Below are positions 2,469 through 22,309 of a stretch of DNA of 32,000 nucleotides, one piece after another. Origin of the DNA: Methylomicrobium lacus LW14. Lineage in GTDB: Bacteria; Pseudomonadota; Gammaproteobacteria; Methylococcales; Methylomonadaceae. The stretch spans positions 2,876,569 to 2,908,568 of the forward strand of contig NZ_AZUN01000001.1 in assembly GCF_000527095.1 (NCBI RefSeq), in the 5' to 3' direction. The position numbers and the translations under genes were made by a program. Position 1 is the stretch's first letter. The number at the start of each line of letters is the position of its first letter. The notes below the pieces were generated by a model. It saw nothing but the letters and a program-made list of their open reading frames with translations. It did no database searches and was not told where the DNA came from.

Positions 2469-3650
2469 TTACTCGCCGCCTGCCTCGAACAGCTCCAGCG
2501 GCAATCCCACCAGCGCCTTGCCGATCCATTCGCGGGCGATGTTGTTCGACGGCCCCATGCCGATGCCGGCGCGGGCATCACGGAAGATGCGTTCGATCGG
2601 GCCTTTCTTGTAACCGTAACCGCCGCTGACATCCAGGGCGTTGCGTGCCGAGATATTGGCGACTTCCGCCGCATGCACCTTGAATTCGGTCAACGGCAGC
2701 AGGATTTGCCCTTGCGGCTGACCGGCGGCCTGCAATTGGTCCAATTGCCGCGCCAGATCGTGCTGCCAGGGGCGCAGGCTTTCGACCAACACCTTGGACT
2801 CGCCCAATTGCTGGCGCAGCACTTGGTAGTCGGACAGTTTGCGGTTGAAATCGCGGTGAATGGTGCCGGTCAGATGGTCTGAAGCTTTTTCCAATGCCGC
2901 CCTGGCCACACCGTGCCAGACAGAGCCCAGACCGACCAGATAGACCGGCGATACGCCGTGGTAAACGATGTCTTTGCCCTGGCCTTCGTCGCCCAGGCGA
3001 TCGATGCTTTTCACATTGACATCCTTATAGGTGATCGGCCCGCTGTGGTTGCCGCGCACCCCGAGCGCTTCCCAGGTGCCGTGCGTGATGCCGTCCAGTT
3101 TGGAATCGACGATGAAGAAGCTGATATCGGTAGGGCCTTTGGCGCCCGGCGAACGGGTTTGAAAAATATAGTAATCCGCTTGTCCGGCACTGGTGGTAAA
3201 TGACTTTTCCGCATTGAGCAGATAGTTATCGTCGTTGCCACGGGAAGCTTCGCTGAAGTTAAACCACCAGTGTCCGCCCGAGGCTTTTTCGCTGGTCGAA
3301 TAGGTGCCGATCAAACCGTCGCGGGCAGGCTTCAACCAACGTTCTTTTTGGTCGTGGTTGCCGAATAAGTTGATGGTCTGCGCCGCACCGGTGTGCATCA
3401 CATAGACCAGGCCGGTCGAAGCGCAGGCGCGGCCGATTTCTTCCGCCACGATCGAAAAGGCGACATGATCCAGACCCAGGCCGCCGTATTCCTTCGGAAT
3501 CAGCACGCCATTCCAACCCGCCCGGCCCAAGGCCTCAAGATTCTCCCGCGGGAAAACGCCCTGGTCGGTTTGTTCGGCATTAGGCCGGATGACTTCGTCA
3601 ACCAAGGTGCGAATTTCGGAACGGATTTTTTCGTAATCGTGTACAGACAT
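2469..3650 (-). CDS. Acyl-CoA dehydrogenase family protein (SfnA/DszC-like flavin-dependent oxygenase candidate)
   Basis: The 393-aa ORF has a strong AAGGAG Shine-Dalgarno before ATG 3650. ACAD-like blocks are present: IPKEYGGLGLD, IAEEIGRACASTGLVYVMH, SEKASGGH and YGYKKGPIERIFRDARAG. Confidence 0.8.
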   Translation of the reverse strand: MSVHDYEKIRSEIRTLVDEVIRPNAEQTDQGVFPRENLEALGRAGWNGVLIPKEYGGLGLDHVAFSIVAEEIGRACASTGLVYVMHTGAAQTINLFGNHDQKERWLKPARDGLIGTYSTSEKASGGHWWFNFSEASRGNDDNYLLNAEKSFTTSAGQADYYIFQTRSPGAKGPTDISFFIVDSKLDGITHGTWEALGVRGNHSGPITYKDVNVKSIDRLGDEGQGKDIVYHGVSPVYLVGLGSVWHGVARAALEKASDHLTGTIHRDFNRKLSDYQVLRQQLGESKVLVESLRPWQHDLARQLDQLQAAGQPQGQILLPLTEFKVHAAEVANISARNALDVSGGYGYKKGPIERIFRDARAGIGMGPSNNIAREWIGKALVGLPLELFEAGGE

Positions 3651-3660
3651 GATGCTCTCC

Positions 3661-4239
3661 TTAAGCTACTTCACATAATTGGGTTTGATCCGCGCGGATA
3701 AGCGCCGCGACAACGGCTTGGCGCGCTGCCGCATGGATGCGTTCATTGACGATGGCATCGCTAAAGCGTGATCCGTCATAGTTCTGTTCGGTGGCGTAGA
3801 TGCCGGAAGGGACGGTTTGCGCACCGAAGAAGCCGAATAGCGGCCGCAGTTGATGTTCGATAATCAGGGCATGCTTTTCCCCGCCGCCGGTGGCGCCGAG
3901 AATCACCGGCACGTCGTTCAGCGCCTTCACATCCAGAAAATCAAACACATGCTTGAATAGGCCGGTATAGGAACCTTTGTAAACCGGTGTGACCGCTACC
4001 AGGATGTCGGCCGACCCGATAGAATCCAGCACGGCTTTGCCACTATCGCTCAGCTCGCCCGGATGACGGGCTGGACCGAACACCGGGCCCAGATCAGCCA
4101 AGCTGTGAGTTATGACTTCAATACAAGCTTGCGGGTAAGCTTGCTGCTTGATGGCTTCCACGATTTGCTCGGCCAATGCGAGCGTCTTGGACGGCAGCCC
4201 TAGATTGCCCGAAACAACCACGACTTTTAATGTACTCAT
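3661..4239 (-). CDS. NAD(P)H-dependent FMN reductase (SsuE/MsuE/SfnF class)
   Basis: Internal ATG 4239 gives MSTLKVVVVSGNLGLPSKTLALAE...ADILVAVTPVYKGSYTGLFKHVFD...ILGATGGGEKHAL, a flavodoxin-like FMN reductase signature. It is the first gene of the minus-strand sfn operon. Confidence 0.8.
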   Translation of the reverse strand: MSTLKVVVVSGNLGLPSKTLALAEQIVEAIKQQAYPQACIEVITHSLADLGPVFGPARHPGELSDSGKAVLDSIGSADILVAVTPVYKGSYTGLFKHVFDFLDVKALNDVPVILGATGGGEKHALIIEHQLRPLFGFFGAQTVPSGIYATEQNYDGSRFSDAIVNERIHAAARQAVVAALIRADQTQLCEVA

Positions 4240-4306
4240 GTTGATTGCCTTTGTACGGTTGAAAAATCCCAATGCCTGCAAAGCATGGGTACTGTACTTA
4301 AGCTTT

Positions 4307-4322
4307 AGCACCGATTATGCCA
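4307..4322 (-). promoter_or_regulatory. Candidate sigma54 (-24/-12) promoter for the sfn operon
   Basis: The minus strand reads TGGCATaatcgGTGCT. The GG-N10-GC spacing is identical to the consensus TGGCAC-N5-TTGCW. It lies about 70-85 nt upstream of ATG 4239. Confidence 0.55.
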
Positions 4323-4398
4323 ACACGTAACCTATTGTTTTTTAAATGATTGCCGAGAGCCTTATCGATTTGAATGCCGATTTTGCAGCAGCGAATCA

Positions 4399-4428
4399 CA
4401 ACGATTGCCGCTACAGCGGCAATCGTTG
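4399..4428. promoter_or_regulatory. 14-bp perfect inverted repeat (CAACGATTGCCGCT-ac-AGCGGCAATCGTTG); candidate enhancer-binding-protein site shared by two divergent sigma54 promoters
   Basis: The palindrome is read directly from the sequence. Its centre lies roughly 90-120 nt from both predicted sigma54 start sites. A further GATTGCCG copy sits at 4348-4355. Confidence 0.5.
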
Positions 4429-4476
4429 CGGGACATGCAACCGGCAACCCCAGCGTTAAGGCTGTGCAAGATCATT

Positions 4477-4492
4477 TGGCACAATACCTGCT
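4477..4492 (+). promoter_or_regulatory. Candidate sigma54 (-24/-12) promoter for the amidohydrolase gene
   Basis: The plus strand reads TGGCACaatacCTGCT with exact consensus spacing, about 75 nt upstream of ATG 4565. Confidence 0.6.
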
Positions 4493-4564
4493 GCTTCTGT
4501 GGCTTGAACACCAGCCGAAGCGAAGATCGCTTCAACACATTAGCCAAATCCGAGAATTGACAAG

Positions 4565-5413
4565 ATGTCCAGACCGATAATCGACATGCGCAGCCGACCT
4601 GCGTTTCTGCATGATTTTTATGGCGCAACGCCGGCAACACCCGAATACGAAACCGCCAAATGGCTTAATCGCCGCTTGGGCTCTAAACAGGACGATCACT
4701 TTGTCCGCTCGCATACCCTGGATGGGTTTATCGAGGAAATTCGCGAGGTGGGTATCCGCCATGCGGTCGTCGTCGGCCGCGATACGCCCGACATCACAAT
4801 CTCCAACGAGACCATCCGGGACATTACCTCGCCGCACCCGGAACTGATCGGCATCGCCTCGGTAAACCCGCAGGCGCTGGATAGCCGTGCCATCGCCGAA
4901 GCCATTGAAAAGGCCGTGAACACACTGGGTTTGAAGGGAGTTAACATAGAACCCGGATTCGGCGCGCCGCCCATTCAGGCCGATGACCCGTTGCTCTACC
5001 CGATTTACGACGCCTGCGAGCAACTGGATGTACCGGTGTTTTTAATGTCAGGTCCGACCACGCCGAACCTGGAATATGCCAATCCGGTCGCCGTCGGCAA
5101 GGTGGCCAGGGCTTTTTCAGGTTTGCCTATTGTCTGCTACCACGGTTTTTATCCGTATGTGAACGAAATGATCGGCGTCGCGTTTCGCTATGAAAACGTT
5201 TACGTCGTCCCGGACATGTATATTTTTCTGCCGGGCGGAAGCCTGTATGTGGAAGCGGCCAACGGTTTTATGAAGGAGCAATTGCTGTTTGGCAGCTCGT
5301 ATCCGTTCCGGGCGATGGGGCAAACGCTCGATGACTTTATACGGCTCGGTTTACACGAGGAGGTGCTGGATCGGGTGTTGTATCAAAACGCGAAGCGTTT
5401 ATTGCGGATTTGA
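4565..5413 (+). CDS. Amidohydrolase-2 family (TIM-barrel metal-dependent hydrolase) protein
   Basis: The 282-aa ORF reads IDMRSRP...GIRHAVVVGRD...GLKGVNIEPGF...PVFLMSGP...IVCYHGFYPY...LLFGSSYPF. Length and block order fit amidohydrolase_2/ACMSD-like proteins. Confidence 0.75.
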   Translation: MSRPIIDMRSRPAFLHDFYGATPATPEYETAKWLNRRLGSKQDDHFVRSHTLDGFIEEIREVGIRHAVVVGRDTPDITISNETIRDITSPHPELIGIASVNPQALDSRAIAEAIEKAVNTLGLKGVNIEPGFGAPPIQADDPLLYPIYDACEQLDVPVFLMSGPTTPNLEYANPVAVGKVARAFSGLPIVCYHGFYPYVNEMIGVAFRYENVYVVPDMYIFLPGGSLYVEAANGFMKEQLLFGSSYPFRAMGQTLDDFIRLGLHEEVLDRVLYQNAKRLLRI

Positions 5414-5468
5414 CCGATAGGCCGGATTTGCCGAATAATCCCAGCGCGGATTATTCGGCATCTTTCCG

Positions 5469-14323: not shown

Positions 14324-16049
14324 TTATTCTGCCCGTCTGCTCACTTCATCCAGCAACTTGATGAAATTGCGCTTGGGTTTGAAGCGGCTGCGCAATTCCG
14401 CCAGATAATCCATAAACTCGCGCTTTCGTTCGGGGCCGTTCAGAATGCTTTCGATCCTCCGCACGAGTTCGACGGCCTCGGCATAGGCGGCATTGTTGGT
14501 TTGTTCTACGATGGTCGGAATGATCTGCCGATACAGAGCCAGGGCATCGTCAGGACGCTCCTTTTCCAGTTTGCCGGCCAGTTCGATCAGCAAATTCCGA
14601 TCGCGGACGCCCGCATGCGCCGCCGTCCAGGCATCATCCAGGTTGTTTTCCCACAACGCGATTTGCAGCCGCACGGAATAATCGGGCATGCCGGGCTTCG
14701 TTTTCCAATAGCTTACGGCGGCGGCTCCTCCGGCAATGGCGTCGGCCAGTTTCGCCAGCGCGCGCTCCCGCTGTTCGGGCCAAACGCCGAGCCGTTCGGA
14801 GACCGCGTGCAGCTTTTTATAATGGTCCAGGATTGGCCGCTCTTCGAACTGCACCCAGGTCAACTGCAAGGCTTCTTCGTTGCGTTGGCTTTTGAGATAA
14901 GCCGCGACCAGAAAATCGCGCAATCGATTGTCGGTGGCGGCAGGGAAAGCGTGCAGACCGCGTTCCGCCCATTCGAGCGCCTTGTCATCCCGGCCGTTCG
15001 CGGCCCATATCCCGGCGATGGTCAGATAACGGTAAGCCGTACTCAGATCGCGCGCCTTGATCGCCACCAGTTCTTCCACGTTGCCGCTCGCTTCGGCCAG
15101 GAACTCCATGATGCGGGTAATACGGTAGCGCTGGAAATCATAAGGGCTGTCGCCGTCACGAAAACCGATCTTGGCCCATTCCGCCTCGGCCAACTCCCGG
15201 TAACGGCGGAGGCCCGCCTCGCCCAGAAGGTCGCGGTAGGCCATCGCATTGATATCGCCGTAATCATTGGCAGGCGAGATTTCCATCCGGAACAGCCGCT
15301 CCGCCAGCGCTTGCGGGTCCGGCTTCGCCAGCCGGCAGGCTTGCAGGTGCAAATCGCCCAACCGGCTCAGGATGCCGCCGACCTCGCCGTTGGAATCGTC
15401 TATGTTGTCGAGCGCTTTTGCTACGCGTCCGATCGCATATTCGGTCAACTCCATCAGCATAGGTGCATCCTCCGGCGTCGATAAGGTCGCTATCGCATCC
15501 ACAACCTGATCGAGCTCATCCGCAAAAGCCCCCGCATCACCCCAGTCCATAAAACCGCGAACCTGGGTCGCCTTCTCGATGGCCTCGCGATAGGCCTTGA
15601 CGGCATGAGCGCCGCCGGCAACGGACTCGGCCTTGAGCAATAGCGTCCGGTATAGGCGATCATCCTGTTCCGCCGCATCCATCAACCACGCGATCAATGT
15701 GTCCGGCGACTGGATCTCCAGATAGTCCCGAATCGTGCGCCACGGATCGGGACGCTGGCCGCTGCCGTCTTCGTGTTCGGCAAGCCAGGCCAGACCGACC
15801 GCCACGCAGTGTTTGCAGAAAAAACCGTCCGCCGCGTTCGGACAACTGCAATCGTGTCCAAGATAGTCCCCGGTCGTCCCGCAGTTCGACATGGTAGGTT
15901 TCGGTGCCATCGACGCGCGCGCTGACTTTACGGCCCGTCTCGCGCAGCGGCCCTACTTGGCCGTCCTCATAATACGCCTCGCCGCGCGCGAAAACCGCTG
16001 GGCCGGCCAGGTTTTTGAGGGCGTTGCGGGTAATAAGCTTTTCAAACAT
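14324..16049 (-). pseudogene. SWIM zinc-finger family protein, split by a +1 frameshift at a G4 run (C4 on plus strand, 15868-15871)
   Basis: The N-terminal frame (ATG 16049) gives MFEKLITRNALKNLAGPAVFARGEAYYEDGQVGPLRETGRKVSARVDGTETYHVELRDDR. The next frame continues DYLGHDCSCPNAADGFFCKHCVAV (SWIM CxC...CxH) and then about 500 aa of helical repeats. Skipping one G restores a single ORF of about 575 aa. Confidence 0.7.
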
Positions 16050-16245: not shown

Positions 16246-17934
16246 TCATTTGCAAATATACGGCACTACAAAACGAATGTCCTTGCCATTCTGCCGAATC
16301 AAATTCCTAAGACCCAAAGACTTGAATTTTGGGTCTTTATGCAACCCTTTTTTATAATTCTCTTCGATGCTCACCGCGTCTTTATCGTAAATGGTAAAGT
16401 CACCATCGGCCAACTTTTTCATCCGCTTGACAAAACCACGAGTCAACTCAAAACATTCAATTTTATCTTTTACAAAGCCTAAAGCTGTAGTAAAGCCTTG
16501 TCTGCTAACCAAAATAGACACCATGCTTTCTTTATTTTCCAGTTCATTCTCCGCAACCCTAAACGAAAATAATTCATCGGCAAAGAAAACCGTTTCAGGT
16601 CTGATTGACAACCGAAATAAGCGATCCCGGCGATTTTCCATCACCAAATCTCTGCCGTTTAGAAAAGCCGCCAGTTCCATCAATTCCGCCCGAATGGGCG
16701 AATGTTCGTCCACTTCCAGCCAGCCATGAGGATGAAAACCGATATTTTTTTCGAGCGATGCGAATTCGAATTCAAAACCACGCAAATGTGCCGCCAGGCC
16801 AAGAATCAACGCTAATTGACGGGGAGTTAATGCTAAATCCAGCGGTTTTTCCTTACCCAGCACACCCGCCATGACGGGTTTTTCTGGATTTCTTGGCAGG
16901 GTAATGCCGTATTTTTCCTTATCCGACAAATAGCTCGGAACAAAGCTGTCCGGCAGGGCCGATAACTCGGCGGCCAGCGCCGCATGATTGCCGGCAAATT
17001 CATCATACAACGCCTTGATGTACGGAATTTTGCCGTCGGTGGTTTCCCCCCGTTCGATGTCGGCAAGTGAAAGCCAAGTCAGCCGAGAATCGCTATTCAC
17101 GCGTTGCTGTAAAAACAAATAACCGTCAAGCGTCAGTTCGATATTAAAAATATCCAGATAATACTCGGTCAAGGCATGATTTGGTGCCGCGCCTTGAACT
17201 TGTCGATACGGTTGCAAACGACGCCAGAGCTCGAATTTGTAATGTGTATCAAACACCAAGCCAGCCTCTTCGCGCAATTCCCGCTTCAAGGTTTCCGGCA
17301 AGGCGTTTTTAATGAGGGGCGAATCAGGCGATTGTAGCGCTTTTAGTAATTCGGCCTTGTCGGCCACACCCCACACGTCATGCTGATTGGCGCGTCCGCC
17401 GATCAAACCATAATCACCCGCTGTTCTGTCGAAATTCTTTTTTGTATCTTCGCGTTGGTAGAACAGAATTTTGCCGTCCAGCTTGATGATACTCCAGGCT
17501 ACGTAACAGTACCGAATCGGCTGAGCTTGTTGACTGATTTGATGTTGAAAACGCGCCTGCTCAATCCAGCGCAACACGTCGCGTTGTTGCTCTTTGCGGC
17601 TGTTGTCGATATCCCGAGTATTCCAGAAATGAGGCGTAAAAAAACGTGATTCGCCGTCGCTCATCGCGGTCAAAACCGAAGTTGCCAGCAACTGGGCCGG
17701 AAAAGAGACGAAACTCCATTCGCCTTTCGCAAGATCATCGAGGTTCAAAACCGACAAAGTATCGAGCAGCCTTTCGCACCACATGACCGTATTCTCGGCG
17801 ACAGCCGGCTCGACCGCATGATGCTCGCTGATCGCCCGAATTAAACTGATCCTATCGACGCTGTAAAAATCGCCTTCCTCTTCCGCATAACGCGGCAATT
17901 CCCGAATAAGCGTTTTGATTAGGTTATCGGCCAT
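16246..17934 (-). CDS. Large (562 aa) uncharacterised protein with a central Nudix-like domain
   Basis: Residues about 140-300 have a Nudix-fold-like layout. The signature RELREEAGL (REUxEExGU) is at aa 218-226, and the GG of the box is at aa 179-180. An insertion of about 25 aa interrupts the box. I do not recognise the flanking N- and C-terminal regions. Confidence 0.6.
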   Translation of the reverse strand: MADNLIKTLIRELPRYAEEEGDFYSVDRISLIRAISEHHAVEPAVAENTVMWCERLLDTLSVLNLDDLAKGEWSFVSFPAQLLATSVLTAMSDGESRFFTPHFWNTRDIDNSRKEQQRDVLRWIEQARFQHQISQQAQPIRYCYVAWSIIKLDGKILFYQREDTKKNFDRTAGDYGLIGGRANQHDVWGVADKAELLKALQSPDSPLIKNALPETLKRELREEAGLVFDTHYKFELWRRLQPYRQVQGAAPNHALTEYYLDIFNIELTLDGYLFLQQRVNSDSRLTWLSLADIERGETTDGKIPYIKALYDEFAGNHAALAAELSALPDSFVPSYLSDKEKYGITLPRNPEKPVMAGVLGKEKPLDLALTPRQLALILGLAAHLRGFEFEFASLEKNIGFHPHGWLEVDEHSPIRAELMELAAFLNGRDLVMENRRDRLFRLSIRPETVFFADELFSFRVAENELENKESMVSILVSRQGFTTALGFVKDKIECFELTRGFVKRMKKLADGDFTIYDKDAVSIEENYKKGLHKDPKFKSLGLRNLIRQNGKDIRFVVPYICK

Positions 17935-17971
17935 GGAGATTTCGAGTTTGAAGATAAAGTTGATCTGGAAT

Positions 17972-18006
17972 TTCGATTTTTACCATTGCGACCATTCGAT
18001 TTTTAC
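17972..18006. repeat. Two exact 12-bp direct repeats (TTCGATTTTTAC) with 23-bp period
   Basis: Copies at 17972-17983 and 17995-18006 are read directly from the sequence. They span the vapC stop codon and the gap upstream of the Nudix-like gene. Confidence 0.5.
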
Positions 18007-18404
18007 TCTTCCCAATCTTCAAATGCCAATCCCTTGACCCGCCCGAATTCCCGAGTATTGTGCGTTATCAAAATGACTTCATGAGCCAACGCAATGGCGG
18101 CAATCATGAAATCATTGGCGCCGATGGGCTTTCCGATCGCGCTCAGCTCGCTGCGTATCTTGCCGTAAAATGCTGCCGCCTTATCATCGAAAGGCAAGGA
18201 TTGAAAATGGGCGCAGAAATTTTCGACTTTGGACAAACTGCCTACCGGGTTCTGGCTTTTCATCGCGCCGTAAAGAAGTTCCGCTTTAACCACCGAACAC
18301 AACACGACTTCCTGAGGCTGGCACATTTCCAGTCGCTGTTTTAACCGATCGGAACGCTTGTTCAGAAAAACGATGCAGGCGTTGGTATCCAATAAATATC
18401 TCAT
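18003..18404 (-). CDS. vapC: Type II toxin VapC (PIN-domain ribonuclease)
   Basis: The sequence MRYLLDTNACIVFL... (first PIN acidic residue), ...SVVKAELLYG..., ...GANDFMIAAIALAH...LITHNTREF shows the classic VapC layout in 133 aa. Confidence 0.88.
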   Translation of the reverse strand: MRYLLDTNACIVFLNKRSDRLKQRLEMCQPQEVVLCSVVKAELLYGAMKSQNPVGSLSKVENFCAHFQSLPFDDKAAAFYGKIRSELSAIGKPIGANDFMIAAIALAHEVILITHNTREFGRVKGLAFEDWEE

Positions 18405-18637
18405 GAAATGGGCCCGACTTCATCCAGGTCGGGTTGCTCGGGGCGTTCCAAAGGAGTATCGGCCAAACAGCCATAGCTTTCGTTAATGAACGCCAACCAA
18501 TTCTGCCGCTCGACGGTCTCCTTGCGCGGCTGAATAATCACTACCAACTCCACATCCTGATTGGCGTATTCGGAGGGCAGCGTTAGATGGAGTTGGGCGT
18601 TGTTTTCTATGTGTGTGGTGAATTGTAAAGTTTTCAT
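18401..18637 (-). CDS. VapB-type antitoxin candidate (AF2212/DUF104-like N-terminus)
   Basis: The 78-aa ORF starts at ATG 18637: MKTLQFTTHIENNAQLHLTLPSEYANQDVELVVIIQP...YGCLADTPLERPEQPDLDEV. Its stop overlaps the vapC start (ATGA at 18401-18404), the standard antitoxin-toxin arrangement. Confidence 0.65.
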   Translation of the reverse strand: MKTLQFTTHIENNAQLHLTLPSEYANQDVELVVIIQPRKETVERQNWLAFINESYGCLADTPLERPEQPDLDEVGPIS

Positions 18638-18642
18638 AATTT

Positions 18643-20013
18643 TTACTCTGGTGGAAAACTGCAATAGAAAATGTGCCTTGCCAATTCAAACATATAAGTA
18701 GTATCTTCGTATTTAAAGTCATAAAACTTTATTTCCAGAAGACTTTTTCTATTTCCAGTGCTAATAAAGGGGTTGGATGTACAAAGCCAGAACATTTGAT
18801 AAAGCAACTTAATGAATAATTGCTTATCATTCCGGACTGGCGAATTACTTAGCTGAATATTGTTAGCCAGTTCGTTAAAATAAAAAGCATCTTCAATTTT
18901 TATATCTTTTTTATGGCTTTCGTCTAGTACAATATTTTTTAAAGAAAGATATGTTTCACTAACAGGAATCGTTTTGGATTTAAAATCGTTCTCCGATAAT
19001 GCTTCCTTTTCAAATAGGCTTAGCAATATTTTTTCGTAGCCATGAAGATCCCCATTCCCGTAGTTAAACATAACAAGCATGTTTATCATAAACAAATAAG
19101 CAACCAGCTTTTCATTTATTTCGGAAAATAAGTTTGAATTATGCGTTATCCAATGCCGTGTATTTCGCATTATCCAAGCCAAAACTGCATCATTTTTCTC
19201 TTTATCCCGTTTTATAAACTTTGCAGAATCCCATTCATGAGAAAGGGTTCTGACAAAAAGCTTATACAAGGCGTGTTTGTTTTTAGGTTCTTGCAAAGGT
19301 AAAAACGCTTCTAATATTTCTAAATAACTGATTAAATCCTTAAACTCAGCGGGCTCGTTTTTATTTGTAAAATTTTTGAAATATAATTTACTGCTGTCTA
19401 GCTTCTTCGCATATTGACAACCTTCAATAATTCCGCGGCGCAGTTTAGAGTAAGAGTTGTGACTATTTTCTAAAATCCACTCATGTGCGTAAGAGTCTTC
19501 TGATTTAGGATATATATTGGGTTGTTTTATTTTAGCGCTTTCAAAAGCTTCAAGCGTGGAACTCAATTTATCGCCATTCTGTGAACAAAAAAGTATGTTT
19601 TGTTTTGGAAAGCCAAGTTCAATTACTAATTCCGAATAAATATGAAAGCCGGCATACGGCCTCACTTCCTTACACTTTTCCCCTAATAGCGCTTCATCTT
19701 CCGATTCGTCATTTGGCTTTTTATAGCCATGAAATTTTTCGAGCAACTCAAGGAGACAAGTACTAGGTTCCCCTGTATAAGCAGGCAAATCAATATCTAA
19801 AATGATGTAGTCGATCTTGTTCAAGTCGTTTCTAATGAAACGTAACCCATCATCCAAACTCGTTTCAATAAAAACTCCGAATTTTTCTAAGTTTGCTTTT
19901 AATTGCCGCTTGTTGTCTGAAAAACTCTGTTTATCAATAATGCCGGAAAATAGGTTACTTGCCGTAGTTATTGCAGAATTATCAAAGTCTTCTATCCACA
20001 GAAAATAACTCAT
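18643..20013 (-). CDS. Receiver (CheY-like) domain protein fused to an uncharacterised ~280-aa helical C-terminal domain with an RHxxxH motif; no recognisable DNA-binding domain
   Basis: Receiver landmarks are FLWIEDFD (acidic pair, aa 8-11), DYIILDIDLP (candidate phospho-Asp D73, 19795-19797), ILFCSQ (S144) and K170. The C-terminal part contains WIMRNTRHWITHNS (aa 280-293; DNA 19141-19170). GC is very low: the line at 19081-19140 hand-counts to 25%. Confidence 0.65.
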   Translation of the reverse strand: MSYFLWIEDFDNSAITTASNLFSGIIDKQSFSDNKRQLKANLEKFGVFIETSLDDGLRFIRNDLNKIDYIILDIDLPAYTGEPSTCLLELLEKFHGYKKPNDESEDEALLGEKCKEVRPYAGFHIYSELVIELGFPKQNILFCSQNGDKLSSTLEAFESAKIKQPNIYPKSEDSYAHEWILENSHNSYSKLRRGIIEGCQYAKKLDSSKLYFKNFTNKNEPAEFKDLISYLEILEAFLPLQEPKNKHALYKLFVRTLSHEWDSAKFIKRDKEKNDAVLAWIMRNTRHWITHNSNLFSEINEKLVAYLFMINMLVMFNYGNGDLHGYEKILLSLFEKEALSENDFKSKTIPVSETYLSLKNIVLDESHKKDIKIEDAFYFNELANNIQLSNSPVRNDKQLFIKLLYQMFWLCTSNPFISTGNRKSLLEIKFYDFKYEDTTYMFELARHIFYCSFPPE

Positions 20014-20027
20014 CTTCCACCCTGCCT

Positions 20028-21692
20028 TTACAGAAATTTGTTAAGAATGCCGAATTCGACCACAAAATCATCCTGCAGCGCGGGCTTGGTAAACCGACTC
20101 CCTGTTTTTCGTGCCAAGGCCGATAAAAACGCATGCCCCTTACGGCTACCCTTAATGATGGTGCGTTCGCTTCGCGTTGAAGGATTGCGGCAGCTCAACA
20201 CCCGACAACCCTCGCGCTCCGCCCACTCCAAAACCACCGGCTGCCGGGTTGGAGACGAATAGTATTTAAAGGCATTTACCAGGATTTCATTGAGCAGAAT
20301 CGTTAAAAACGACTCCTTGACCCAGAACTCCTTGAAGCGAATGTCCGCATCGTCAAAGCCCTTTATTTCCAGTTTAAAAAAATGTTGTTCCAGCCACGCC
20401 AGACGTTCCTCCAATCCAGCGGATTGCATCAATAACTGCGCGTAACTTTGCTCCCACTCGGCTTGCAACTGCTGCTCCAGCTCATAAAAGTCATCATACC
20501 AACTTTTGAAGCTCAGTTCCGGCGCACAAAGACCGTGAGCTTTCGCATAGGCCAGATAATGTTGCTGGATTTTCTCGGTGGCCGACGCGGAAAGCAGGTG
20601 CAACATGATCATATCCAGGGTTTTACCAAAGACAGACATAAGACTGCCGGTGCCACGATGATCCTGTTTCAGCCTTTCGTTGAGCACGTCCGGGTCGGTG
20701 GAAATGATGCTGAAAACATCCAGCAGACCGCGCATGGTCTGCGCGGCTTCGGTATACAGCTTGACCTGGTTTTCGTGGGTGGTGTTGTAGATGATGGCAT
20801 CCAGAGGGCTGCGGAATTTGTGGGCGAACATCGCCATGGTTTCTTCTAGTTCGCTTTCTTTTGCTTTCAAACTTTGATTTGTTTTATCAAGTTTAAGCTG
20901 TTGGAAAAGTACTTCACGAAAAGGCTCAAATAATATTCTTTCATGCTCAGTCACTTCTTTTAAAAAACCTTCGATGTGTTCCTCGGCCAATAAGTACTCA
21001 CCAGATCGAATAAATACGTTAAGCCGAAGCGATAAAATAAAGTATTTGTCAATCCAAAGAAAAGGATAATCTCCACTAAGACCATTACACAGTATATTAC
21101 CAATACCTTCTAAGTGCCGATATGTCAGTTCAGCATTTATATCATTTTCATCCAAAGCCATTTGGTCAGAAAAAACATCTAAGTACATATTTATTAAAGC
21201 TTCCCCTAAATTTTCTTCAAAGCCGCCATCGTTACCAAGCTCGTCTAAAAATGGACCTTCAGCCGCTTTTTTAAAATTAGAAATCGCCAATTCTTTATTG
21301 CTCGCAACGCCTTTCCCTGCTAAATACAATAAGCCGAGAAAAAATCGAGCCATTGCGGAATGGGGGCCTGTTTCATACCCCTTGCAGAACGTTAAGACAA
21401 AGCTCCAGCATTGTTGAATATTATTCTTCTCCCATAAGTCATATGGAACAACGATTTGAATGCCCGCATTCACAAGCCAATTCAAAGCATCTTGATTCCC
21501 CTTTTTGGCGGCTTCGACCATGTCTTCCATGCCATTCTCATAGCCTGGATATTCACGAATTAACTTTTCAATAGCCAGATTATATTGAAGCCCCCCATTA
21601 TTTAAAGACATTTCAAACTCATCAAGATCGAACCCGAAAACATCATTACTTAACGCTTTGTCTTTATTGCTTTTGTCTTGTGAGTTTTCCAT
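20028..21692 (-). CDS. Cytoplasmic sensor histidine kinase with Sel1/TPR-like N-terminal region
   Basis: The H-box is MAMFAHKFRSPLDAI (His291, DNA 20820-20822) and the N-box is LLNEILVNAFKY. A Sel1-like repeat, ARFFLGLLYLAGKGVASNKELAISNFKKAAEG, is at aa 115-146. I see no hydrophobic transmembrane segment. There is no clear DxGxG G1 box, and the position reads LSCRNPS. Confidence 0.75.
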   Translation of the reverse strand: MENSQDKSNKDKALSNDVFGFDLDEFEMSLNNGGLQYNLAIEKLIREYPGYENGMEDMVEAAKKGNQDALNWLVNAGIQIVVPYDLWEKNNIQQCWSFVLTFCKGYETGPHSAMARFFLGLLYLAGKGVASNKELAISNFKKAAEGPFLDELGNDGGFEENLGEALINMYLDVFSDQMALDENDINAELTYRHLEGIGNILCNGLSGDYPFLWIDKYFILSLRLNVFIRSGEYLLAEEHIEGFLKEVTEHERILFEPFREVLFQQLKLDKTNQSLKAKESELEETMAMFAHKFRSPLDAIIYNTTHENQVKLYTEAAQTMRGLLDVFSIISTDPDVLNERLKQDHRGTGSLMSVFGKTLDMIMLHLLSASATEKIQQHYLAYAKAHGLCAPELSFKSWYDDFYELEQQLQAEWEQSYAQLLMQSAGLEERLAWLEQHFFKLEIKGFDDADIRFKEFWVKESFLTILLNEILVNAFKYYSSPTRQPVVLEWAEREGCRVLSCRNPSTRSERTIIKGSRKGHAFLSALARKTGSRFTKPALQDDFVVEFGILNKFL

Positions 21693-21737: not shown

Positions 21738-22175
21738 TCAACCGCGTTGATTGTTCAAATTTTCGACATTAATTGGTATCTGCAATTCTTTCCCAACATC
21801 CTGCAACATTTTAATTGCTGTCGGTCTATTGAAATGCGTGGTGATATACCAGCCTTGATAGAGTTTTTGAGTTTGATAGCCGTTAGCCGGTGTTCTGGCT
21901 AACAACGGTATGCCGGAAAGCCTTTTATTCAGTCGCGCGACTTTATCCAAGCCGAGCGTTGCCAGAGTTTGCACAAAGGTATCCGAGATCGTGGCCTGTT
22001 CGATAACTTTTTCGCCAATCCTTACCCTTAGCGTACCACTCGACTTGCGGGGAATCCGGCGTGAACGAATCCGGACAGGTTTCGCAACCGCTTTGCTTGG
22101 TTGCCTTTCCTCGAATCGTTTTAAACAAGCTCTCAATTCCATGTCCAGCATCTGTAATCGTTTGCAGTCATCCAT
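21738..22175 (-). CDS. Hypothetical 145-aa basic protein; first long ORF of the island operon
   Basis: This is an ORF-track entry with no family I can name (…RIRSRRIPRKSSGTLRVRIGEKVIEQATISDTFVQTL…GWYITTHFNRPTAIKMLQDVG). It is on the same strand as the kinase gene and 45 nt upstream of it. Confidence 0.45.
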   Translation of the reverse strand: MDDCKRLQMLDMELRACLKRFEERQPSKAVAKPVRIRSRRIPRKSSGTLRVRIGEKVIEQATISDTFVQTLATLGLDKVARLNKRLSGIPLLARTPANGYQTQKLYQGWYITTHFNRPTAIKMLQDVGKELQIPINVENLNNQRG

Positions 22176-22183
22176 TTTCGCTG

Positions 22184-22309
22184 CTACCGAAGCGAAATCC
22201 CTAAAAGGCTCGCCTCGGCACTTTCGATTTTGAGATCATCGGCAGCGTAGGTAATAGCGGCAAACAGTTCGTTGAATTTGCTGGTGACGGTTTCGGGCAA
22301 TCTGTTCAT
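22184..22309 (-). CDS. Possible 41-aa leader ORF (MNRLPETVTSKFNELFAAITYAADDLKIESAEASLLGISLR)
   Basis: I found this by hand translation, as it is below the ORF-track size cutoff. A GGAGAA sits 7 nt before ATG 22309, and the stop is 8 nt before the next ATG. No homology is recognised. Confidence 0.25.
   Translation of the reverse strand: MNRLPETVTSKFNELFAAITYAADDLKIESAEASLLGISLR

Follow-up and report, generated by a model that had tools for sequence, protein, structure and literature searches.

What does a receiver domain control when it is fused to a helical domain that matches no named family? This question is raised by a gene that we call REC-X, carried on the minus strand of a 32,000-nucleotide stretch of the Methylomicrobium lacus LW14 genome (hereafter the window, whose coordinates are used throughout unless another locus is named), for which a first-pass annotation had suggested that a receiver gates a HEPN-like nuclease by phosphorylation. 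The answer that we propose, and to which we give an even chance, is that REC-X is an atypical response regulator with a divergent HEPN-type RNase effector, forming an obligate two-gene module with a Sel1 kinase-like partner encoded directly upstream. The features of REC-X are as follows:

18643-20013, minus strand: REC-X gene (receiver plus helical domain, 456 amino acids), from the list of open reading frames (ORFs) and translation.
19462-20013, minus strand: receiver (REC) domain, residues 1-184, from AlphaFold2, Foldseek and residue conservation.
18646-19461, minus strand: C-terminal domain, residues 185-456, uncharacterised, a putative HEPN-like effector, from the AlphaFold2 model.
19141-19158, minus strand: invariant R-[N/H]-W-x-x-H motif (R286-H287-W288-I289-T290-H291), putative catalytic site.

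The REC-X product corresponds (100% match) to a 'hypothetical protein [Methylomicrobium lacus]' and finds no family match in Pfam, NCBIfam or PADLOC; a PADLOC PDC-M32A match (E 0.0044) was set aside, as it was not reproduced across 80 homologues. Among 5.8 billion proteins, 372 homologues were found, all of them full-length, none named and none with a Pfam domain, and a profile of the C-terminal domain searched against 1.84 billion cluster representatives returned 379 clusters, which share one architecture almost throughout. Because the C-terminal domain sits at about residues 170-480 in nearly all of these clusters, the architecture is fixed, and the family size amounts to about 380 clusters at 50% identity. 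The taxa concerned are Methylococcales, Chromatiaceae, relatives of Thiomargarita and Beggiatoa, Nitrosomonas, Competibacteraceae and Pseudanabaena, and several metagenome-assembled genomes (MAGs) harbor two divergent REC-X copies. The diverse set of 80 homologues used below is 23-49% identical to the query, with a mean column identity of 16%.

The N-terminus of REC-X, which the first-pass annotation had taken for a receiver, is indeed a genuine receiver with an intact phospho-acceptor pocket. In the full-length AlphaFold2 model (predicted local distance difference test, pLDDT, 91.1; predicted template modelling score, pTM, 0.90), the order of strands and helices is that of the (beta/alpha)5 flavodoxin-like fold, and Foldseek matched the model to solved receiver domains, foremost that of Sln1 (8phx_C, prob 0.99, TMt 0.61); the matched entries include 8svz_B (0.94), 3jte, 2i6f_C and 9of4_C (0.92), and the matches to KdpE, FrzS, PmrA and NtrX have prob 0.87-0.94. 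The key residues are E8/D9 (19987-19992), the phospho-acceptor D73 (19795-19797), S144 (19582-19584) and K170 (19504-19506), all on the minus strand; E8, D9, D73 and K170 each reach 90% conservation or more among the 80 diverse homologues, and position 144 is T in the family consensus and S in the close set. D73 stands in the context ILD-IDLP, and the full-length profile searched against PDB sequences gave only four weak matches, all of them response regulators, with the acceptor aspartate aligned as DyiilDIdlP with DLVILDIEMP. The receiver also carries an insertion of about 60 residues between beta3 and beta4, modelled as helices 85-95 and 103-132. At the level of Pfam, the window protein has no Response_reg match at E <= 1; weak matches occur in nine of the 80 homologues (best E 2.3e-5, 25 bits against a cut-off of 30.2 bits), and the gathering threshold of PF00072 is reached neither by the window protein nor by any of the 80.

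The C-terminal region had been described as rich in helix-formers and low in glycine and proline, and so it is: Gly makes up 2.1% and Pro 2.8% of residues 175-456, and two AlphaFold2 models, the full-length one and one of the C-terminal 285 residues alone (pLDDT 90.9, pTM 0.90), show about 12 helices and a single beta-hairpin at 415-430. Translation of 18643-20013 places the motif where it had been reported, within WIMRNTRHWITHNS (residues 280-293), the R286 codon being 19156-19158 and the H291 codon 19141-19143 (minus strand). In both models, DSSP puts it at the C-terminal end of helix 274-291; after a break come a short helix (293-296) and helix 301-315. The first-pass annotation had warned that one short motif is weak evidence, with good reason, as R.{4,6}H arises in 58% of composition-preserving shuffles of residues 175-456, and still in 29% of them when a polar residue is required after R. 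The presence of R-x4-6-H in a single sequence is thus not significant; its conservation exceeds chance. Indeed, neither R286 nor H291 varies in any of three alignments (45, 32 and 80 homologues), and the two belong to the only six invariant columns of the 80-sequence set (G122, L191, R192, R286, H291 and E327); W261, W288 and R313 are near-invariant. Likewise, R-x-W-x-x-H occurs in 76/76 genome loci covering the region, 65 of them with RN and 11 with RH. At position 287, 96% of the diverse homologues have Asn and the subgroup of the window has His; position 283 falls below 90% conservation. The other register that had been considered, R283-N-T-R-H287, is therefore excluded, since H287 is normally Asn. 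Altogether, we regard R286 and H291 as a functional, probably catalytic site, and we hold this more firmly than the HEPN homology of the domain that bears it.

As to this homology, HEPN proteins carry a motif consisting of R, then N/D/H, then x3-5, then H, on a four-helix up-down bundle core with an acidic helix-2 residue, typically Ex3[K/R], and the HEPN RNases are metal-independent enzymes with a dimeric composite active site (Anantharaman et al. 2013, PMC3710099). The REC-X motif, R286-[H/N]287-x3-H291, has the Rx4-6H form with the polar residue, and closes a helix just ahead of a kink, which is the position given for HEPN in the same study (with the helix numbering of REC-X inferred). A Pfam scan of the 80 members is consistent with such a kinship: besides Response_reg (9 members), only HEPN_Swt1 was matched by more than two (4 members, best E 0.066). 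Three divergent full-length members give HEPN_Swt1 matches (E 0.08-0.1) that run from the H-x-W helix to the motif. When homologous core segments were concatenated and compared with Pfam, twelve sub-threshold matches to five HEPN-clan families appeared (DUF4145, Hypoth_Ymh, HEPN_Swt1, HEPN_Apea and pEK499_p136), and all twelve cover RNWxxH with the C-terminal third of their profile; these scores being sums over homologous, non-independent copies, they were used only as locating evidence. A recurrent CRIC_ras_sig match of the concatemers spans the artificial segment junctions and was dismissed as an artefact. In addition, the motif of ApeA, a HEPN RNase with a validated role in defence, is RNKITH, nearly equal to the RNW[IM][TA]H of REC-X (10.64898/2026.03.20.713152). 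On balance, we favour, by a slight lean, the HEPN homology of the C-terminal domain.

The gene that precedes REC-X encodes its presumed signalling partner:

20028-21692, minus strand: 554-residue Sel1-repeat protein with a divergent histidine-kinase-like C-terminal module, from Sel1 matches and alignment A4.

In the window, 14 nt separate the end of this gene from the start of REC-X. A kinase-like homologue lies directly upstream of REC-X in 62/62 loci with enough upstream sequence, and in 60/64 the gap between its ORF and REC-X is 2-11 nt, or else the two overlap by 4 nt. The protein is named 'SEL1-like repeat protein' by NCBI, and several homologues are called 'signal transduction histidine kinase' by JGI/UniRef. 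Its length ranges from 460 to 945 residues across loci, owing to the variable N-terminal repeat region; as this range is natural and several loci encode about 555 residues, an N-terminal truncation of the window gene was rejected. The conserved C-terminal part of about 300 residues contains an invariant His in MFAHKFRxPL, an N-box-like E..N..KY and G..G.F (alignment A4), corresponding in the window to the H-box His291 (codon 20820-20822) and the N-box NEILVNAFKY (20262-20291, minus strand). The partner has the H-box of a histidine kinase DHp domain and lacks the full N/G1/G2 box set of GHKL proteins. The profile of the module finds its best PDB match on the H-box, in the DHp domain of ERS1 (4mt8, E 0.017), and an EnvZ DHp chimera (3zrw, E 0.64) is matched on the H-box as well. 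We also noticed that a pocket with an invariant N-P-[S/T] raises the question of whether the partner uses ATP, uses another nucleotide or is a pseudokinase.

Over 60 loci, the receiver and the kinase-like module diverge in step (Spearman 0.90, p 1e-22), whereas the C-terminal domain follows neither of them in its divergence (0.36). For example, loci L016, L017, L019 and L020 are 52-61% identical to the window in the effector domain, as compared to 33-35% in the receiver and the kinase module. Since the receiver and the kinase module diverge together and the C-terminal domain does not, the sequences bear the mark of a kinase and a receiver that are cognate to each other, joined to an effector that recombines on its own. 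We looked for an exchange of effectors behind distantly related kinase-like proteins and saw none, as such homologues (20-25% identity) are again followed by REC-X with RNW[IM][TA]H. A natural deletion-fusion, P0187 (789 residues), was observed on two contigs (L084 197-2566 and L085 157-2526); in it, the kinase-like module (hhalign probability 100 to A4) runs directly into the latter half of the receiver and the C-terminal domain, and the receiver part carrying E8/D9/D73 is missing.

By analogy with known phosphorelays and HEPN RNases, we propose that the Sel1/TPR repeat domain would sense a trigger, plausibly a phage or mobile-element component, upon which the kinase-like module would be phosphorylated on its invariant His (H291 of the 554-residue protein) and the phosphoryl group would then move to D73 of the receiver. 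Receiver activation promotes dimerisation in many response regulators. The activated receiver of REC-X might similarly dimerise, or rearrange, so as to bring two C-terminal domains together, and the paired domains would complete a composite R/H active site, as in HEPN RNases. RNA cleavage by the R286/H291 site, presumably metal-independent, would lead to growth arrest or abortive infection, halting the cell or the invader. Of this scheme, our data establish the receiver fold with its intact pocket, the invariance and placement of the motif, the co-variation and strict adjacency of the two signalling modules and the mobile context, whereas the HEPN homology, the RNase activity, the phosphotransfer, the activation by dimerisation and the defence role are deduced.

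This proposed logic, from sensing to His~P, Asp~P and effector activation, is that of Detocs, a phage defence system which comprises the TPR-kinase DtcA, the standalone buffer receiver DtcB and the receiver-effector DtcC (10.1101/2023.01.24.525353). Like Detocs, the REC-X module sets a cytoplasmic repeat-containing kinase sensor beside a regulator in which a toxic effector, putative in REC-X, replaces the DNA-binding output. Unlike in Detocs, the sensor has Sel1 repeats and a kinase module lacking the G1 box, and the REC-X receiver resembles that of DtcC only generically (hhalign E 0.0014-0.043, probability 1-17%). The effectors of Detocs are modular, those documented being PNP, a restriction endonuclease (REase), an OLD-like TOPRIM and a transmembrane (TM) alpha/beta-hydrolase, and the portion of its Table S5 examined lists neither a HEPN effector nor a Methylomicrobium entry. 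In the comparison with Detocs, the PADLOC 2.0.0 models gave no match to the REC-X module. The REC-X module appears to work like Detocs, yet the published definition, with its three genes, leaves it outside that system.

REC-X may also be compared with the sensor-gated HEPN RNases, where an N-terminal regulator controls a C-terminal HEPN domain needing dimerisation (PMC13092281, PMC3710099). Like Csm6/Csx1 (CARF-HEPN), RNase L/Ire1 (kinase-KEN), DS-11 (CBS-HEPN) and ApeA, it combines an N-terminal regulator with a C-terminal effector, and Csm6 (8jbc_B) occurs, not significantly (E 0.19, probability 0.07), in the Foldseek list of the full-length model. It differs from the CARF-, CBS- or pseudokinase-regulated enzymes in that its regulator is a phospho-accepting receiver, and from all of them in that nothing in its C-terminal domain matches theirs significantly, by sequence or by fold. 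In HEPN-MNT (HepT/MntA) and other HEPN toxin-antitoxin modules, the HEPN RNase toxin is held inactive by an adjacent covalent-modification partner (PMC7641770); this control is an inhibitory AMPylation by a nucleotidyltransferase, whereas that of REC-X is presumably an activating His-Asp phosphotransfer to a fused receiver. As in PorX, CheB and PleD, a receiver would control a fused enzymatic domain by phosphorylation, putatively so in REC-X; PorX is among the Foldseek matches of the full-length model, through its receiver, the output domains being unrelated. To our knowledge, the published censuses of response-regulator outputs list no RNase or HEPN output, and our literature search found no description of a receiver-HEPN fusion. 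The architecture is less unusual than the first-pass annotation had supposed, since receivers that gate toxic effectors are already exemplified by Detocs in phage defence.

The cassette to which both genes belong (about 16.2-22.3 kb of the window) has a guanine-cytosine (GC) content of 35-49%, against 55-60% in the rest of the genome. It has different neighbours in different genomes, frequently among them transposases, integrases or group II introns. A complete cassette is borne by the 149-kb plasmid pUP202 of Methylomonas sp. UP202 (locus L086, NZ_CP123898.1, 92092-98270), where it adjoins PRTRC ParB and lambda Bet/Exo-like recombination genes, and where the small, kinase-like and REC-X genes are annotated as hypothetical by PGAP. 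No copy was found in the phage collection searched. A scan for promoters and terminators returned sites no more frequent than in shuffled sequences, and a tRNA scan found none.

Several observations weigh against our proposal and have to be set beside other explanations. The HEPN-like nuclease of the first-pass annotation is supported in part, by the invariant R-[N/H]-x3-H at a helix end, and membership of the HEPN superfamily is no more than favoured. The C-terminal model has no Foldseek match, HEPN or other, in the PDB (best E 3.8) or in BFVD (best E 3.3); its profile retrieves nothing relevant from PDB sequences (a glutathione-S-transferase match was judged spurious) and nothing significant to HEPN; the family and subclade consensus sequences match no Pfam HEPN model; and the best single-protein Pfam HEPN matches (E 0.066-0.1) reach about 13 bits against a cut-off of 27.5 bits, and may be largely driven, like the other sub-threshold matches, by the short motif itself. 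Furthermore, the acidic Ex3[KR] of helix 2 in many HEPN families is not clearly present: E260, in the H-E-W motif, is invariant in the close homologues and is conserved below 90% in the diverse set, where W261 exceeds that level, and the invariant E327 lies C-terminal of R-x4-H. An alternative, to which the missing structure and profile matches lend support, is that the C-terminal domain is a new helical enzyme, or a ligand- or nucleic-acid-binding domain, unrelated to HEPN, its R-x4-H being convergent or coincidental. REC-X would then still be kinase-controlled, with an output such as a small-molecule phosphodiesterase or hydrolase, perhaps linked to NUDIX, or a protein regulator. The frequency of the motif in shuffled sequences fits this explanation, and so do the size of the domain (270 residues, twice that of the HEPN core), the conservation of R192, E327, W261, W288 and R313, which are not standard HEPN features, and the NUDIX-like gene found downstream in 26/43 loci. 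Yet a coincidence would hardly keep the exact HEPN consensus form invariant in a family with so low a mean column identity, nor place it at a helix end as in HEPN; the weak Pfam matches that recur belong to the HEPN clan alone and are aligned in register with the motif. We therefore consider an output unrelated to HEPN to be rather unlikely.

On the side of signalling, the partner has no DxGxG (G1) in any of the 19 aligned members, which have an invariant N-P-[S/T] instead, and HATPase_c was found in 1/19 of them (E 8e-4) and HATPase_c_5 in 2/19, all below the Pfam thresholds. With its G1 box replaced and these thresholds missed, any autophosphorylation of the partner is putative. The receiver could accordingly stay unphosphorylated and act as a protein- or nucleotide-binding switch, the Sel1 protein being a pseudokinase that holds the effector inactive, in the manner of an antitoxin, or releases it on a trigger. 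Kinase-independent receivers have been proposed in conflict systems (PMC8195603) and in CRISPR Cam2 (PMC11229360), and the fusion in P0187 of the kinase-like module to half a receiver and the effector would suit such an arrangement. What makes it distinctly improbable, in our opinion, is that the H-box His, the E/N/K/Y of the N-box and the G2-like glycines are invariant, that the DHp profile matches on the H-box, and that all five active-site positions of the receiver are conserved, needlessly so for a purely structural interaction. A further departure from Detocs is that the REC-X module has no standalone receiver equivalent to DtcB. As regards its role, the pathway might serve housekeeping or stress responses rather than anti-phage defence, with a cytoplasmic Sel1 sensor controlling an RNase that remodels host RNA on a physiological cue. 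Such a role would agree with the concentration of the family in lineages of related ecology (Methylococcales, Chromatiaceae, Thiomargarita/Beggiatoa, some Pseudanabaena), with the many ordinary metabolic genes in the flanks and with the lack of a match among the PADLOC models. It appears doubtful, though less so than the pseudokinase, when account is taken of the atypical GC content, the differing and often transposon-rich neighbourhoods, the plasmid-borne copy, the pairs of divergent copies in several MAGs, the highly variable sensor length and the embedded toxin-antitoxin pairs, features that are typical of mobile defence cassettes. Finally, the window copy may be attenuated, because a Leu (L313) replaces a near-universal Arg of REC-X and the small accessory gene is frameshifted, or else these two departures may be sequence errors.

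Returning to a phosphorylation-switched HEPN-type RNase, we tentatively put forward, with somewhat less confidence than our main proposal, that REC-X is the founding member of a class of response regulators with RNase output and belongs to a self-contained two-gene immune module distinct from Detocs. In such a module, a His-Asp phosphorelay would directly switch on a HEPN-type nuclease of otherwise unmatched helical fold, the Sel1-repeat sensor kinase would have a non-canonical nucleotide pocket (N-P-S/T for DxGxG), and methanotrophs, purple sulfur bacteria and giant sulfur bacteria would commonly carry the module. If this is true, RNA cleavage joins the outputs directly controlled by a classical two-component phosphorelay, and the Detocs principle of phosphotransfer as an immune trigger extends to a second, unrelated family, which differs by its sensor, by its effector, which is new, and by the lack of a buffer receiver. 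Mutants at D73, R286 and H291, all of them conserved, are directly testable, and the co-variation of kinase and receiver beside a recombining effector offers a clean system to study partner specificity. A phosphorylation-switchable RNase would potentially be useful as a tool. Moreover, the REC-X family is wholly 'hypothetical' and absent from Pfam, NCBIfam and PADLOC, so its definition would improve the annotation of environmental genomes.

The window copy of the cassette comprises the following additional features:

19075-19077, minus strand: codon CTT, L313 of REC-X, a departure from the family, from the alignments.
21738-22309, minus strand: small accessory gene (~190 amino acids), frameshifted near 22199-22205, from tblastn in two frames.
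18003-18664, minus strand: VapB-like antitoxin (18401-18664) and PIN toxin (18003-18404; PIN E 4e-16).
16246-17934, minus strand: 562-residue NUDIX-like protein, a clade-specific accessory gene (NUDIX E 0.0014).

Position 313 of REC-X is Arg in all 44 other close homologues and in 99% of the 80 diverse ones, and the CTT codon of the window is one G-to-T change away from CGT. The frameshifted small gene reads ...ESAEASLLGISLR* in one frame, and the +1 frame continues with GDFASVAAKMDDCKRLQML as in the homologues; a 145-residue ORF (21738-22175) is the C-terminal remainder of this gene, which precedes the kinase-like gene, is clade-specific as well and is present upstream in 18/46 loci. The possibility that the small upstream protein is a DtcB-like standalone receiver was rejected by its sequence, which has no Pfam match.

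The VapB-PIN pair fills a variable slot between REC-X and the NUDIX-like gene. The same arrangement was found in loci L001, L005, L014, L026, L074 and L088, and other loci hold in this slot a gene for a 65-residue ribbon-helix-helix (RHH)-like protein with an 87-residue partner gene. A 20-residue remnant of the 65-residue RHH-like gene of other loci was noticed in the window at 17936-17995 (minus strand). The NUDIX-like gene (~560 residues), which is annotated 'NUDIX hydrolase' on pUP202, encodes a protein with a central NUDIX domain and otherwise uncharacterised regions; the Nitrosomonas homologue (e.g. L001 10266-11945) scores 27.4 bits, over the cut-off.

In the Nitrosomonas sp. ANs5 locus (L001), genes for NYN-domain, weakly Prok-E2_E-like and ThiF (E1-like) proteins lie directly upstream of the cassette (2865-5426), and they may represent a separate ubiquitin-like conjugation or defence module. 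In the window, a gene flanking the low-GC island (14324-15910, minus strand) encodes a protein with a SWIM zinc finger and a DUF6880 domain (E 7e-13), which is unrelated to REC-X.

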